Shown here piece by piece: positions 6,145 through 56,899 of a stretch of 64,000 bases of DNA (the first letter of the stretch is position 1; each line of letters opens with the position of its first letter). The notes beneath the pieces are model-generated. The model was not told where the DNA came from. It saw nothing but the letters and a program-made list of their open reading frames with translations, and searched no databases. Position numbers and translations under genes: made by a program. The stretch spans positions 1,134,204-1,198,203 of the forward strand of contig OY970332.1 of the NCBI GenBank assembly GCA_963717435.1, written 5' to 3'. Source of the stretch: an uncultured bacterium (GTDB taxonomy: Bacteria; Babelota; Babeliae; Babelales; Babelaceae).

Positions 6145-7149
6145 ATGAAACAAAAAATATTTTTTCTGCTTACACTCACAGCATATATTTCAAACTCAAA
6201 TTGCATGGAAAACCCCGATCAAGACGAAGCAATTATTGGTGCCATTGAAAAAATGTTAAAAAAGCCAATAATTTTTAAACCAACATTTGATGACCTTTAT
6301 GATGCGTTTGGGGAAATTCCGGCGCTCGGGCTAAGTCCCGATACCGCAACAGATTATTTAGTATCAGCCATAAAATCGAAAGATAACTCCGAAAAAACAA
6401 GGGCCACTATTAACAAAATTATGATATTGAAATTATTCACACCCGATAATAGTGGTGGCCGAGATGGTCATTCAACAACAACGCGCGATACCATTCGCAA
6501 TGTTTCACTTTATTTAGACACATTCCCAAAAGTGATCAATGCAATTTGCGATGCTGATCCAAAAGACTTAATTTTGAAATCCGCATGGCTAATATTAAGC
6601 ACAATGCCAAGTTTGTACGAAATTTTCTGCGAATTTGGTTTTATAAAGAACAAAGATAATTCGCAAAGTGATAATCGCGACTTCGAACTTGAGCTCTATG
6701 GCACTAAGGGACAGGAATATTTGGATAAATATTTGGCGTTAATGGCAAAAGTTGTCCAAACTGATTTTGCACAGCAGGGAATTATGCTGACAAGGCTTGT
6801 TCAAAAACTGGGCGACAATGTTGATTTTTTGAATTATGTCGACGAGCAAATTGAAGAAATCCCATTGTTTAAAAACAAAATAGAAGTAATACGCGAACAA
6901 TGGAAAATGTACAACTTAGCCACTGAAGAATTTGAAACAGTTATGGAAATGGACAGTCGAATTCAGACCATAGAAAAAGAAATCAACTTAATACATGAGG
7001 AAATTCACAAATTTAGCCAACAAGTTTTAGATAGCAGTCAAACAAAGCCGATTACAACTAACAGCACAATTGCAAATAATCTTCTAGATTTGGGTGAATT
7101 TGAAGAACCAAACAGCGATCAAAAAGATGAAGTTGGCAAGACAAATTAA
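6145..7149 (+). CDS. Secreted hypothetical protein
   Basis: Signal peptide followed by MENP; helical/coiled-coil C-terminus. Confidence 0.75.
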   Translation: MKQKIFFLLTLTAYISNSNCMENPDQDEAIIGAIEKMLKKPIIFKPTFDDLYDAFGEIPALGLSPDTATDYLVSAIKSKDNSEKTRATINKIMILKLFTPDNSGGRDGHSTTTRDTIRNVSLYLDTFPKVINAICDADPKDLILKSAWLILSTMPSLYEIFCEFGFIKNKDNSQSDNRDFELELYGTKGQEYLDKYLALMAKVVQTDFAQQGIMLTRLVQKLGDNVDFLNYVDEQIEEIPLFKNKIEVIREQWKMYNLATEEFETVMEMDSRIQTIEKEINLIHEEIHKFSQQVLDSSQTKPITTNSTIANNLLDLGEFEEPNSDQKDEVGKTN

Positions 7150-7327
7150 AACCGAGTAAGACAAATATTTTTTCACAGCAAATATTATTTAGAAGCAAAA
7201 GACATTATCACCAGATCGGTGATCTCTTTTTACCCAAATTACGCAGTACTGGGCTATGTTGTAACAATTGCTTACGCGCTTTTTTATATTCTTTGAAAGC
7301 CCTTTTAGCTTCTTTGGAGATCTTGCA

Positions 7328-8383
7328 CTAATTGAAAATGTAATATACAGCACAGGCTAAAACTATAACAATTATGGGGCTGCCTACTTTGAAACATGCG
7401 CCTGAACTCAATTGCAAAGAATTTTTCTTGTTAGTAATTCCGTGATTTTCAAAATAACGAACCTGGGAGAGTTTAAGACTTTTTAATAAAACTGATGAGT
7501 CAATGATCATTTTAGTGGACTTTTCTCTAAAATTAATATCTACAGCGAATTCCACAATATTATCCAACTCAGAATATGAAAAATTCTCACAACCTTGTGC
7601 AAGGGTCTCCAACGTTCTTTTATCAAGTTTAACTTCAAAACCTTCCATATCTTTCAAATGAAATTCCAAAAATTTCAAACGATGTTCGTAATCGGGAAGG
7701 TCTATTTTTATTAAATGACATTGTTCAATAACACTATTATGCATTAAATCTAGCCTATCAGTAACAAGAATTACGAACAATTTGGGGTTGTTTTTAGATT
7801 CATCTAATTTTTCTATAAAGGTCCTACACGCTTGAACATATTCTATATTTGCTTCATGAATGGTTTTATAAGAAAGACCATCAGCCCAATCAATAAAAAT
7901 GATGCACGATTTATCACAATTTTTTGCCATATCAAATAACCTGCGCACATTTTTTGATCCGGAACCACGATATTTAGTCACATAACTAAAGCTTGCCTTT
8001 TCAAAAAGAACTCTACCAGTTTCGCTAGCAATTATTTTTGCTAACATCGATTTGCCTGTTCCATTTTTCCCATGTAATAATATTCTATTATTTATATTAG
8101 GATCCATTCCAGCAAGTTCATCCATTTTTTTAATATTAAAAATAACAGCTTTTATTTCATCAGGCAGTTCGCCAATATAGTCTTTCAATCCCACAGGCCT
8201 AGTTGGATCAAAGAAATTTTCTTCTTGTTCTTCTAAACACGAGTTACACAAAGAATCGCGATTGACTGTTACAGCCAAGGGCACTCTTACCCCATTGTTA
8301 GAATTCTCCATCGATTTCGAATTAAAATTCAATAAAACAAAAATCGCTATTAATTGTATTTTTATAAAATTTAACTTGTGCAT
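7328..8383 (-). CDS. Signal-peptide-bearing AAA ATPase-like protein with degenerate Walker B and C-terminal TM
   Basis: Walker A HGKNGTGKS; YRGSG pore loop; FIDWAD in place of FIDEID; no Arg finger. Confidence 0.85.
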   Translation of the reverse strand: MHKLNFIKIQLIAIFVLLNFNSKSMENSNNGVRVPLAVTVNRDSLCNSCLEEQEENFFDPTRPVGLKDYIGELPDEIKAVIFNIKKMDELAGMDPNINNRILLHGKNGTGKSMLAKIIASETGRVLFEKASFSYVTKYRGSGSKNVRRLFDMAKNCDKSCIIFIDWADGLSYKTIHEANIEYVQACRTFIEKLDESKNNPKLFVILVTDRLDLMHNSVIEQCHLIKIDLPDYEHRLKFLEFHLKDMEGFEVKLDKRTLETLAQGCENFSYSELDNIVEFAVDINFREKSTKMIIDSSVLLKSLKLSQVRYFENHGITNKKNSLQLSSGACFKVGSPIIVIVLACAVYYIFN

Positions 8384-8526
8384 GAAATCCTTCGTGCTTA
8401 AAAAATATTTTGAATTAATAATTGCAAACTAGCATATCAAAATACTGGCGCAAATAAAACAATCGATGCTTAAGATTTTAAACATAAAAATAGATTTCAA
8501 GGGCATTTTTTCACAGCAAAATATTA

Positions 8527-9387
8527 TTACACGCAAAAGATATTATAGATGCCGTTGATAAAACTTGTTCGTTCTGGGCTAGAATTAAATCTCAAATTCA
8601 TATTATCAAGAACAAAAAGTGCTGGGTTTTCGTTAGGAAGTTTTAAAACAGAAACAAGAATATAATGATTTTCTGAGGATAGTATGCAGGCGAAATTTAT
8701 AATAGCTGCAGAATTTGTGTACAAAAGAGATTTTAAGCTTAATAATTTTTCATGAAGCTTGGCCAGCAAAGAATCCATAACAAAAACTTTAATGTTATCT
8801 TCTGACGTTCTATATGGTGCTTTAATTTTCACATGGGCATCATGTTTTTTCAGTGTAACTTCCGCCGTAATAGTTTTATATTTAGTAGAAAAATAGGGTT
8901 GCCAACTGTAATTATTTAATTGAAGTTTTATCTGGTTAGGTGGCGCTAAATTTAGTATATAAAAATTTTTTAATGATAAATTGTTGTCTGCCATATGGAC
9001 CAAGTCTGTCGTATTTAAACTTGCTCGCGGATTTAAGTTTTTACTATTGATATATTGCGAACAGACAGATTTTATGTCGCAAGAGCTATTTAAGCCAATA
9101 AGAGATTCGAGCATGCGACTATTATGCAAAACAAAATAGCCACAACTATACCCATCAAGATGGCTTATGCTTTTAATTTGATAGATTCTTCTCGCCTGAT
9201 CTTTGCAAAGCAGATTTAGTCTTTTACTACTTATAAACTTTTCGGCCCCATAATTGGCCGGTGCCCCATGAACCAACAGCAAACTGGTCAAGATACAAAA
9301 GCCAACCCCGCTAAGCAGTACAGGTTTGGCGGCGGCAAATAAAACTGATAAGTTAAAATAATAACTATATTTTTTGTTCGTATCCAT
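8527..9387 (-). CDS. Exported hypothetical protein, candidate papain-like cysteine protease
   Basis: Hydrophobic N-terminus; DGYSCGY, NHYILV, FVLDN give a C-H-D order. Confidence 0.6.
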   Translation of the reverse strand: MDTNKKYSYYFNLSVLFAAAKPVLLSGVGFCILTSLLLVHGAPANYGAEKFISSKRLNLLCKDQARRIYQIKSISHLDGYSCGYFVLHNSRMLESLIGLNSSCDIKSVCSQYINSKNLNPRASLNTTDLVHMADNNLSLKNFYILNLAPPNQIKLQLNNYSWQPYFSTKYKTITAEVTLKKHDAHVKIKAPYRTSEDNIKVFVMDSLLAKLHEKLLSLKSLLYTNSAAIINFACILSSENHYILVSVLKLPNENPALFVLDNMNLRFNSSPERTSFINGIYNIFCV

Positions 9388-9608
9388 AATTCCCCCTATG
9401 AATTAGATAGATACTTAATTTATACCATAAAGCTGGGATATTTAACAAGATCTGGGGCTCGAGGCCCAGGCGCAAATTTGATAAAGCTGGGATGGGAAGA
9501 ACGAACTTTGGGGGTAATTAACTAAAAAGACGGGCATAAATTGAAAAATTTAGATTTTAGGGTAAAATTAACTATACATTACTAATTTTATTCTAAAGGT
9601 AAGAAAAA

Positions 9609-9749
9609 ATGTCAGTCACCTTCAAGTTGAAACGCAAAAAAAGAAATAGAAAACATGGTTTTCTGAAACGCATGGCTACCAAAGACGGAAGAAAAATCGT
9701 CAACCGTAGAAGAGCAAAAGGCAGAAAGCGCCTAACAGTCCAAGCTTAA
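9609..9749 (+). CDS. rpmH: 50S ribosomal protein L34 (below ORF-track cutoff)
   Basis: Manual translation [46 protein letters not shown]; upstream of rnpA. Confidence 0.95.
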
Positions 9750-56204: not shown

Positions 56205-56209
56205 AATAC

Positions 56210-56413
56210 TTATTTTTTTCTTTTAATATCTTTTGGCGTGCAGCCTTTTGATTTTAAATAATCCTGGGTAGCCTTGTCATAAATTTTTGGATCTTTTAAA
56301 ACGAAATCTGGAACAGGACACTTTTTAGAATCTCCCGCGCCTCTATTCATGCAACTTAATTTAATCGGAGCAACTGCTAAAGTTAGAAACAATATATATA
56401 TATAGCTTTTCAT
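56210..56413 (-). CDS. Small secreted cationic peptide
   Basis: AAGGA RBS; signal ending LSC-M; two further Cys; ends KRKK. Confidence 0.7.
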   Translation of the reverse strand: MKSYIYILFLTLAVAPIKLSCMNRGAGDSKKCPVPDFVLKDPKIYDKATQDYLKSKGCTPKDIKRKK

Positions 56414-56432
56414 GATATTTATCCTTTTAGTT

Positions 56433-56654
56433 TTATTTTTTCTTGGCAGGTGGACAGTTTGTGATTTTTATTGAACTGCCATTTTTAAAAGTAGTTTTTT
56501 CTGATGAACATCCATTTTTTTCTTTACATGTAGTAGTTGTAGTTCTACCGACATAACGGCTATTATTAGCTACTGTTTTACAGTTCATGCAATTAGACAC
56601 GTTAGCAAAAAGAATTAAACCTAAAATACCCAAACTCTTTAGTAAAAATTTCAT
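56433..56654 (-). CDS. Small secreted 4-Cys cationic peptide (paralog)
   Basis: CKEKNGCSSEK..GS..CPP shared with the upstream gene. Confidence 0.75.
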   Translation of the reverse strand: MKFLLKSLGILGLILFANVSNCMNCKTVANNSRYVGRTTTTTCKEKNGCSSEKTTFKNGSSIKITNCPPAKKK

Positions 56655-56671
56655 TCGATCAACCTTTCTAA

Positions 56672-56899
56672 TTAATGTTTTTTAGCGGGACAAGTTTTAG
56701 TTTTAGTAAAGCTTCCATCTCTATATATTATTTTTTCAGAAGTACAGCCATTTTGGTATTTACACATTATAGCTTTTTCTTTTCCAACAAAGGGAATTTT
56801 GTTCTCTATAGTTGTACATTTTTTAGAACTCATACAATTTAATTCATTTGCATATACAAATAAATTAAAAACAAGTAAAACTGTGAATATAAATTTCAT
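56672..56899 (-). CDS. Small secreted 4-Cys cationic peptide (paralog)
   Basis: GAGG RBS; CKYQNGCTSEK..GS..CPA. Confidence 0.75.
   Translation of the reverse strand: MKFIFTVLLVFNLFVYANELNCMSSKKCTTIENKIPFVGKEKAIMCKYQNGCTSEKIIYRDGSFTKTKTCPAKKH

Follow-up and report, generated by a model that had tools for sequence, protein, structure and literature searches.

Several known systems mark secreted proteins by a short signature near the N-terminus. The lipoprotein export signal of the Bacteroidetes, a short acidic motif at the mature N-terminus, sorts a subclass of Sec substrates beyond the periplasm. In Plasmodium (PEXEL) and the oomycetes (RxLR), a signal peptide and a short motif together mark host-directed cargo, and processing exposes an N-terminus that is then acetylated. 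The phytoplasma SVM signal sequence (Pfam PF12113) is one leader common to unrelated effectors. N-termini that read Met-Asp, Met-Glu, Met-Asn or Met-Gln are substrates of the eukaryotic acetyltransferase NatB, which acts mainly on nascent chains at the ribosome. For the Dependentiae (Babeliales), which are widespread parasites of protists, we know of no way to tell host-directed effectors from envelope proteins. Here we describe a signature of leader-bearing proteins in a member of this group, in which a small residue followed directly by Met, usually with an acidic residue next, stands just past the hydrophobic core of the leader. It was first noticed in a stretch of 64,000 nucleotides (the window), which is the last 64 kb of a single contig of 1,198,203 bp with 34.6% G+C; the source genome is labelled G000.

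The leader junction in the window and the genome

A preliminary description of the window had reported a small residue and Met after the hydrophobic core in 14 unrelated secreted open reading frames (ORFs). All 14 translate as claimed, each with an M-K/R/H start, a hydrophobic core, a small residue (G/S/C) and Met at residue 19-29. Recounting also gave the same nine cases of M-[D/E/N/Q] (four ME, two MD, one MQ and two MN). An independent leader heuristic recovered 11 of the 14, finding in them a charged n-region and an uncharged core of at least about nine residues; both were recognised by eye in the remaining three, which are the ORF at 23512, with Lys inside the core window, and those at 55995 and 56433, which are too short for the crude gene call.

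We then applied this heuristic to the whole genome. Genes were called by a crude procedure (codon-usage score, greedy, non-overlapping), which gave 1167 genes covering 88% of the genome. An N-terminus was considered leader-like if it had Lys or Arg near the start, a net positive charge before the core and an uncharged 9-residue window with a mean Kyte-Doolittle value of at least 1.8. We found that 492 of the 1167 called genes had leader-like N-termini, and that 116 of these 492, about 1 gene in 10, carried [A/G/S/C]-Met within 14 residues past the core (hereafter carriers). The number was 133 of 1167 genes when any start codon in the first 60 codons was allowed. Paralogs inflate these counts, which are not independent because many carriers belong to paralog groups. 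Each of the 24 50-kb bins of the genome holds between 1 and 14 of these 133 genes, and the signature is thus a feature of the genome and not of the window. The recurrence noticed earlier is therefore real, while its framing as local to the window was too narrow.

Shuffling residues within the windows past the core (14-15 residues, own Mets kept, 1000 rounds) gave 46.3 ± 5.3 occurrences with a maximum of 63, and random interior windows gave 21.2 ± 4.6 [AGSC]M, versus the 116 observed. For [AGSC]M[DE], 68 were observed versus 5.4 ± 2.1 expected (maximum 14). Met makes up 1.6% of proteome residues and belongs to the rarest class, yet its composition-normalised enrichment after a small residue was the highest of all (14.8), with Cys at 9.4 and most others at 2.1-4.6. 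The same pipeline run on positions 1-200000 of E. coli K-12 found the motif in 2 of 27 leader-like N-termini, with a normalised Met value of 2.7, 15th of the 20 residues. Neither of the two E. coli hits is a cleavage site, one lying in a membrane helix of NhaA and the other at a non-cleavage position of FhuA. Enrichment of Met at the predicted +1 position, on which the preliminary description hinged, is thus found in this genome, with the E. coli control at background.

The anatomy of the junction was determined from every Met in the 13 residues past the core of the 492 leader-like N-termini, with its neighbours left unselected (n = 184). Position -1 was small in 121 of the 184 (S 45, C 30, G 23, A 23), position -3 was I (42), L (35), S (33), A (15) or V (10) in 135, and position -2 was bulky (F/S/L/I/Y). 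Asp or Glu stood at +2 in 68 of the 121 Mets with a small -1 (56%), versus 8 of the 63 with any other -1. Since D/E at +2 depends on a small -1, the -1, Met and +2 positions are coupled. The consensus, [I/L/S/V]-x-[S/C/G/A]↓M-[E/D], fits a predicted cut by signal peptidase I (SPase I) directly before the Met. Acidity extends beyond +2, with 2.95 D/E in the first 15 predicted mature residues of carriers versus 1.88 behind non-Met leaders (p 0.001), the non-Met cut sites in this comparison being weight-matrix guesses only.

Three other leader types were considered and rejected. With [LVI][ASTVI][GAS]-C taken as the lipobox and its Cys as the start of the mature protein, a lipoprotein reading (signal peptidase II, SPase II) of the Cys-Met cases was dismissed, as 1 of 29 such junctions is lipobox-like; Met directly follows the Cys in 1 of 26 lipobox-like proteins elsewhere in the genome. 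Tat leaders were set aside with RR found within the first 12 residues in 1 of 116 carriers. Type IV prepilin leaders are short, and their cut, between Gly and Phe or Met, lies ahead of the hydrophobic segment; the carriers have their hydrophobic core before the Met and acidic, polar residues behind it.

At the DNA level, no nucleotide motif was found around the internal ATG beyond codon constraints. Synonymous codons at -1 and +2 match genome usage, which indicates that the signal acts at the protein level. A shared mobile leader cassette of the SVM kind was also rejected: blastn of the leader plus 120 nt upstream gave 22 similar pairs, 14 of which have no similarity in the mature part and represent 16-43-nt AT-rich matches or common divergent intergenic DNA. 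Only 72 pairs among the 116 carriers are similar in their mature parts, and most carriers are unrelated to each other.

A Met at a leader junction could be a start codon, and more than 110 genes have an in-frame ATG exactly where the leader meets the mature part. Translation from this second start would give a leaderless cytoplasmic isoform beside the exported one, and initiation independent of a Shine-Dalgarno (SD) motif is evidently common here, SD-like 4-mers (-20 to -4) being found at only 29.0% of all called starts. They were present at 30.2% of the carriers' leader starts, but at 0.9% (1/116) of junction ATGs, less often than at in-frame ATGs elsewhere inside genes (5.0%). Upstream of the junction ATG, the fraction of purines was 0.40, versus 0.61-0.62 at true starts, and that of G was 0.11 versus 0.20. 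The leader's own ATG behaves as a start and the junction ATG does not, as judged by the rarity of SD-like motifs and the low purine fraction upstream of it; an active internal start was rejected on this context. Moreover, a cytoplasmic copy of an effector-like ankyrin, RING or WD40 protein would have no evident use. We therefore regard dual initiation as highly improbable.

The preliminary description had also proposed that leaders were grafted onto existing start codons. The Met would then be a functionless fossil of an old ATG in cytoplasmic or horizontally acquired genes, an idea that agrees with the bias of carriers towards fast-evolving, lineage-specific, eukaryote-like families and with the ease with which AT-rich upstream DNA might encode hydrophobic peptides. 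Two genes in the window look like genuine examples, in which a leader or anchor was placed in front of an older start codon. These are P-loop kinases resembling chloramphenicol phosphotransferase (CPT-like; 47489-48301, + strand, and 58118-58786, - strand), each with a hydrophobic N-terminal extension of 22-28 residues that ends at the Met where the Pfam CPT profile begins. In these two likely true grafts, however, the Met follows Lys or Pro, and they lack the small -1 residue of the carriers; a fossil would not require a small -1 together with an aliphatic or small -3. Searching mature parts against all proteins with blastp, we found no leaderless paralog starting at the Met among 80 N-terminally aligned pairs. 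An SD-like remnant was present in only 1 of 116, and Glu or Asp follows the Met in 56%, whereas the genome's non-secreted proteins begin MK, MN, MI or MS, with E second in only 5.8%.

Protein families in which the junction could be followed bear on the same question. Paralogs that the heuristic classed as leaderless carry a leader and the Met further in. In the DUF5122 propeller family, for example, at least seven paralogs have the junction and six of them were so classed, with ...PQLFA followed by MQGTLDT. Leader-adjacent DUF5122 homologs in other genomes read ...AQIFASA-GTLD, ...DIYAAA-GTLD and ...SLYAG-GTLD, with Met in none. In a global alignment, PQLFAMQGTLD of G000 and AQIFASAGTLD pair without a gap, with Met opposite Ser. 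In this family the Met thus arose by substitution for Ser or Ala at a pre-existing leader junction. Homologs of an ankyrin family that have a leader all keep [small]-M-[E/D] (5/5) at 31-57% identity with diverged flanks. Paralogs that had not been chosen for the motif and that align as far as the Met have, by eye, mostly retained it, while two carry I or T in its place; at 44-74% identity, these pairs carry little weight. At sites with a good -3/-1 and an acidic +2, the +1 codon was ATG in 64 and TTG in 3, with GTG outside the 15 commonest, compared with 1028 ATG, 82 TTG and 57 GTG among the called start codons, a weak comparison since the crude start calls overcount non-ATG codons. As a general cause, grafting is not supported, with leaderless paralogs, start context and a common DNA cassette all missing and the DUF5122 Met in place of Ser or Ala; the two CPT-like kinases look like the exception. 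The fossil account is thus quite improbable for the signature as a whole.

Cargo, lineage distribution and interpretation

Pfam was run on 112 of the 116 carriers, the four straddling 20-kb tiles having been dropped. At E ≤ 1e-3, 73 of the 112 had no match. The others included 14 ankyrin proteins, six WD40 proteins, one DUF5122 propeller, three AAA proteins, and single carriers with PP2C, LRR, CYTH, NADAR and thioredoxin domains. For comparison, 282 non-Met leaders were scanned, which remained from the 376 other leader-like N-termini after removal of 82 with extra predicted membrane spans and 12 straddling tiles. The recognisable members of this set were Skp/OmpH, TamB, MreC, two secretins, penicillin-binding proteins, members of the S41, S13, M23 and M15 families, an amidase, SpoIID, periplasmic binding proteins, FKBP and thioredoxins, together with cytoplasmic false positives. 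An ankyrin or WD40 match at E ≤ 1e-6 was found in 17 of the 112 carriers versus 8 of the 282 other leader-like proteins (odds ratio 6.1, p 2.5e-5). The signature favours host-directed-looking cargo and is absent from recognisable housekeeping envelope proteins.

We estimated how widespread the signature is by running the same pipeline on sampled stretches of genomes from 11 families of one GTDB order. In G000 (family f1, 35% G+C, whole genome), 116 of 492 leader-like N-termini are carriers, with a normalised Met enrichment of 14.8. A second f1 genome, G004 (27% G+C, 200 kb), had 38 of 86 (29.9). The signature was also strong in G024 of f10 (40% G+C, 200 kb; 19 of 78, 12.7), G029 of f12 (100 kb; 14 of 39, 17.2) and G018 of f4 (80 kb; 8 of 36, 10.5), and weak to moderate in G059 of f5 (300 kb; 17 of 110, 6.8). 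It was near background in the rest: G065 of f13 (300 kb; 8 of 100, 4.2), G060 and G058 of f11 (100 kb, 3 of 33; 40 kb, 1 of 9), G017 of f3 (100 kb; 2 of 21), G062 of f15 (60 kb; 1 of 13), G020 of f6 (57 kb; 1 of 18) and G016 of f2 (37 kb; 2 of 11). The signature is thus strong in 4 of the 11 families, and its frequency ranges from 44% to about 8% of leader-like N-termini. Several families are known from 37-100-kb samples only, and the low family values are provisional because samples are small and carriers cluster. As G+C rises, the -1 residue shifts from Ser to Ala and the Met stays. G+C itself was rejected as the cause, with no simple relation to it across the samples (27% to 40% in motif-bearing families).

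The export machinery encoded in G000 includes SecY (79789-80805), LspA, two adjacent secretins, an ATPase of the type II secretion system (T2SS) type and one SPase I (TIGR02227 match at G000:C1:980813-981475). A second signal peptidase dedicated to the Met class was considered and rejected, as only this one SPase I was found. Because it serves both leader classes, they are not told apart by another peptidase of that family. A further T2SS-E-type ATPase match lies outside the window (G000:C1:297436-298582, - strand); it contains stops (4 TGA, 1 TAG, 3 TAA), which could reflect gene decay or a match that runs across frames.

Taken together, we lean towards the view that the carriers have a special class of Sec-type signal peptides with a class-specific, Met-first mature N-terminus, which is selected at the protein level and read after Sec export. 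This view builds on what was observed: the motif, how strongly it is enriched, the cargo and lineages in which it is found, and its nature as a protein-level signal. For the exact cleavage position and every step after cleavage, we infer the following. Most likely, the single SPase I cuts after S/C/G/A with I/L/S/V at -3. The mature protein would begin with Met, usually with Glu or Asp next, and continue with an acidic polar stretch. The Met would belong to the mature protein, where selection maintains it, and would be neither a working start codon nor the remnant of one. The exposed Met-acidic end would then be read after Sec export, possibly as a mark by which the protein is sorted or handled on its way past the periplasm, or which bears on its fate in the host cell. 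Acetylation by NatB or protection from N-degron recognition would be one concrete form of such reading, and recognition during outer-membrane passage another. The unrecognised export route suggested in the preliminary description may also play a part.

A number of our findings weigh against this view. First, the heuristic that defines the leader-like class is crude, its set of 492 includes membrane proteins, and its carriers include at least three probable false positives (a MIP channel, a rotamase resembling a lipoprotein and an M48 peptidase). Second, the expectation that the cut falls before the Met is in line with the -3/-1 pattern, which places Met at the predicted SPase I +1, but its positional support is partly circular: the weight matrix that puts the cut before Met in 100 of the 116 carriers was trained on carriers, and the exact position is deduced from that matrix and the -3/-1 pattern. 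Third, the Met is not obligatory. Of the 29 ankyrin genes in the genome, the strict rule picks out 10 as carriers, and about five more, on which the heuristic or the start call failed, can be added by eye; of the 8 WD40 genes, 5 are carriers. With 10-15 of 29 and 5 of 8, the signature is neither necessary nor exclusive for such cargo. In the secreted AAA family (homologs of 7328-8383), leaders are present in nearly all of 26 loci from 20 genomes and the Met junction in only 5 of the 26. Fourth, proteins that match nothing in Pfam are frequent among the non-Met leaders too (176 of 282, versus 73 of 112 carriers at the laxer threshold). Fifth, two metagenomic homologs of the ankyrin family are called from the Met, as the fossil account would have it; they lie on contigs of 1.8 and 2.6 kb and may be truncated calls or true leaderless forms. 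Finally, the weak or background signal in the seven other families argues against a universal, essential sorting code.

Some of these points would suit a neutral habit of the lineage, in which Met at +1 is tolerated by SPase I, has drifted up in some Babeliales and was spread by paralog expansion without being read. Frequencies that vary so widely between families, a Met that is optional within protein families, and the many carriers in paralog groups are what drift would leave behind, and acidic residues past the cleavage site are common in Gram-negative leaders generally. Drift accounts less readily for the housekeeping envelope proteins of the same genome, which are served by the same single SPase I and avoid Met, or for most carriers being mutually unrelated. 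Nor would it be expected to enrich the rarest class of residue the most, to keep the Met in families of 27% to 40% G+C while -1 shifts from Ser to Ala, or to gain it convergently in the DUF5122 family. We consider such a neutral origin unlikely.

The preferred view, of a Met-first class that is read after export, can be extended to a more specific proposal, which we put forward tentatively and think rather unlikely as it stands. The Met-acidic end would be a second-step address label that parts periplasm-resident from exported proteins, the latter leaving via the two secretins or vesicles and acting in the host, where an unformylated Met-Glu/Asp end would also look host-native. If true, it would be the first example, in a diderm bacterium, of soluble effectors being sorted by a linear code after cleavage.

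Carriers and neighbouring genes in the window

In the following, a slash marks the junction before the Met. The first of the 14 ORFs (6145-7149, + strand) encodes a 334-aa protein without a Pfam match (...ISNSNC/M21-ENPDQ). The next is a 351-aa AAA ATPase with a leader (7328-8383, - strand; ...LNFNSKS/M25-ENSNN; PF00004, E 5.5e-21). AAA ATPases with signal peptides recur in at least six Babeliales families (loci L119-L144) and are unusual Sec cargo. Two neighbouring paralogs on the + strand encode a 324-aa protein (14132-15106; ...TNIIHG/M29-DMSMT) and a 237-aa weak ankyrin-repeat protein (15248-15961; ...VKVIHG/M29-AEEEV; Ank_2, E 3e-5). A 118-aa RING-finger protein with a leader (23512-23868, + strand; ...FNPSWG/M25-QEVEQ) matches zf-RING_2 at E 9e-7 (29.5 bits versus a cut-off of 27.3); a RING finger behind a signal peptide makes it a candidate secreted E3-ligase mimic. 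The RING, AAA and ankyrin domains named in the preliminary description were thus all recovered by Pfam, the ankyrin match being weak. Three further carriers lie on the - strand: a 222-aa protein without a confident Pfam match (33703-34371; ...FGPILS/M26-GNEQL), a 269-aa protein without a Pfam match (34418-35227; ...NQDLFS/M24-VAGGS) and a 186-aa protein with a GTG start (35333-35893; ...PRASFS/M24-EVYEQ).

The remaining carriers are small and are all on the - strand. A 139-aa Cys-rich protein (51698-52117; ...SANLFG/M19-ENNQS) has a paralog at genome positions 531-926 (44% identical) that keeps the junction as ...FNIFG/MENNQSN, and a 76-aa protein lies nearby (53496-53726; ...VFTANC/M19-DKDNL). 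Small secreted proteins at 51698-54229 have paralogs in the first kilobases of the contig (G000:C1:531-1368), and the window ends at the contig's last base; if the chromosome is circular, this cluster of secreted proteins spans the numbering origin. Four genes of 67-75 aa, basic and Cys-containing, form a tandem array at 55995-56899, with a Cys-Met junction in all four and a Pfam match in none. They encode a small basic Cys-containing protein of 69 aa (55995-56204; ...VGQTYC/M21-HNNRC), a small protein of 67 aa (56210-56413; ...PIKLSC/M22-NRGAG) and two paralog-like small Cys-rich proteins of 73 aa (56433-56654; ...ANVSNC/M23-NCKTV) and 75 aa (56672-56899; ...ANELNC/M23-SSKKC).

Two short-chain dehydrogenase paralogs, one in the window (54327-55148, + strand) and one at L001:1699-2517 (+ strand), have a hydrophobic N-terminal extension before the Rossmann motif, a design that recurs in a thymidine kinase (L017:7003-7656) and in an AAA_28 kinase (L021:15538-16215). 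Judging from their sequences, these cytoplasmic-type enzymes seem to be fitted with export or anchor segments. Outside the window, two proteins with non-Met leaders have matches to toxin-related Pfam families: a DXD glycosyltransferase with a weak TcdA/TcdB-type match (L027:3392-4837, + strand) and a 632-aa protein ending in an Ntox17 domain (L048:3929-5824, + strand).

Significance and comparison with known systems

The preliminary description had called for a check of the literature on Babeliae secretomes. We found no description of a small-Met-acidic junction in the Dependentiae/Babeliae literature searched, which did not extend to the supplementary tables of the genome papers, where cleavage sites may be listed; the signature therefore appears to be undescribed. 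Nothing to the point turned up in searches on leaders derived from ancestral start codons or, among the papers listed, on the N-end rule, effectors and cleavage sites. One genome study reports signal peptides on 44% of coding sequences and on 78% of ankyrin proteins (PMC6561590), and the words "cleavage", "methionine" and "N-terminal" are absent from the text covered. In another (PMC4378268), 79 of 126 ankyrin proteins are reported to have signal peptides, and some signal peptides are termed "somewhat atypical"; "cleavage" and "methionine" are absent from the text covered. A third mentions a T2SS with two gspD copies (PMC4776705), and the term "signal peptide" is absent from the text covered. 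The portions of the Dependentiae genome papers searched make no mention of a dedicated effector injection system.

The signature has several uses. As a mark in the sequence, it singles out about 110-130 proteins per genome and thus provides a ready list of effector candidates. Its single Met offers a one-residue, mutable handle on the route by which soluble proteins, once past Sec, exit a diderm cell, and the pattern of families in which the trait was gained or lost can guide a search for the machinery that reads it. For annotation, such genes on fragmentary contigs may be called from the internal Met, at the cost of their leader.

Like NatB substrates, 75 of the 116 carriers would expose M-[D/E/N/Q] at the predicted mature end, as judged at the sequence level. 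Acetylation of an imported bacterial protein is, however, putative, and acidic residues past the cut may have other causes. The parallel with the phytoplasma SVM system is that secreted candidate effectors with no relation to each other have an N-terminal export signature in common, in a bacterium that is reduced and depends on a host. The SVM leaders resemble one another in sequence, whereas here the leaders are unrelated, only the junction is common, and no carrier matches PF12113. With PEXEL and RxLR, the carriers share a signal peptide and a short motif near the mature N-terminus on host-directed or host-directed-looking cargo; those motifs belong to eukaryotic secretory pathways with dedicated proteases, whereas here the motif abuts a predicted bacterial signal-peptidase site. 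The Bacteroidetes lipoprotein export signal is likewise a short acidic motif adjoining the signal-peptide cut, but it follows a lipidated Cys and an SPase II cut, while in the carriers 1 of 29 Cys-Met junctions is lipobox-like and a sorting role is putative. Finally, the leaders resemble canonical Sec/SPase I leaders in their positive start, hydrophobic core and small or aliphatic -3 and -1 residues, and both SPase I and SecY are encoded in G000. What sets them apart is Met at the predicted +1, found in roughly one in four leader-like N-termini here and reaching 44% in a relative, in a manner tied to cargo, whereas E. coli is at background.

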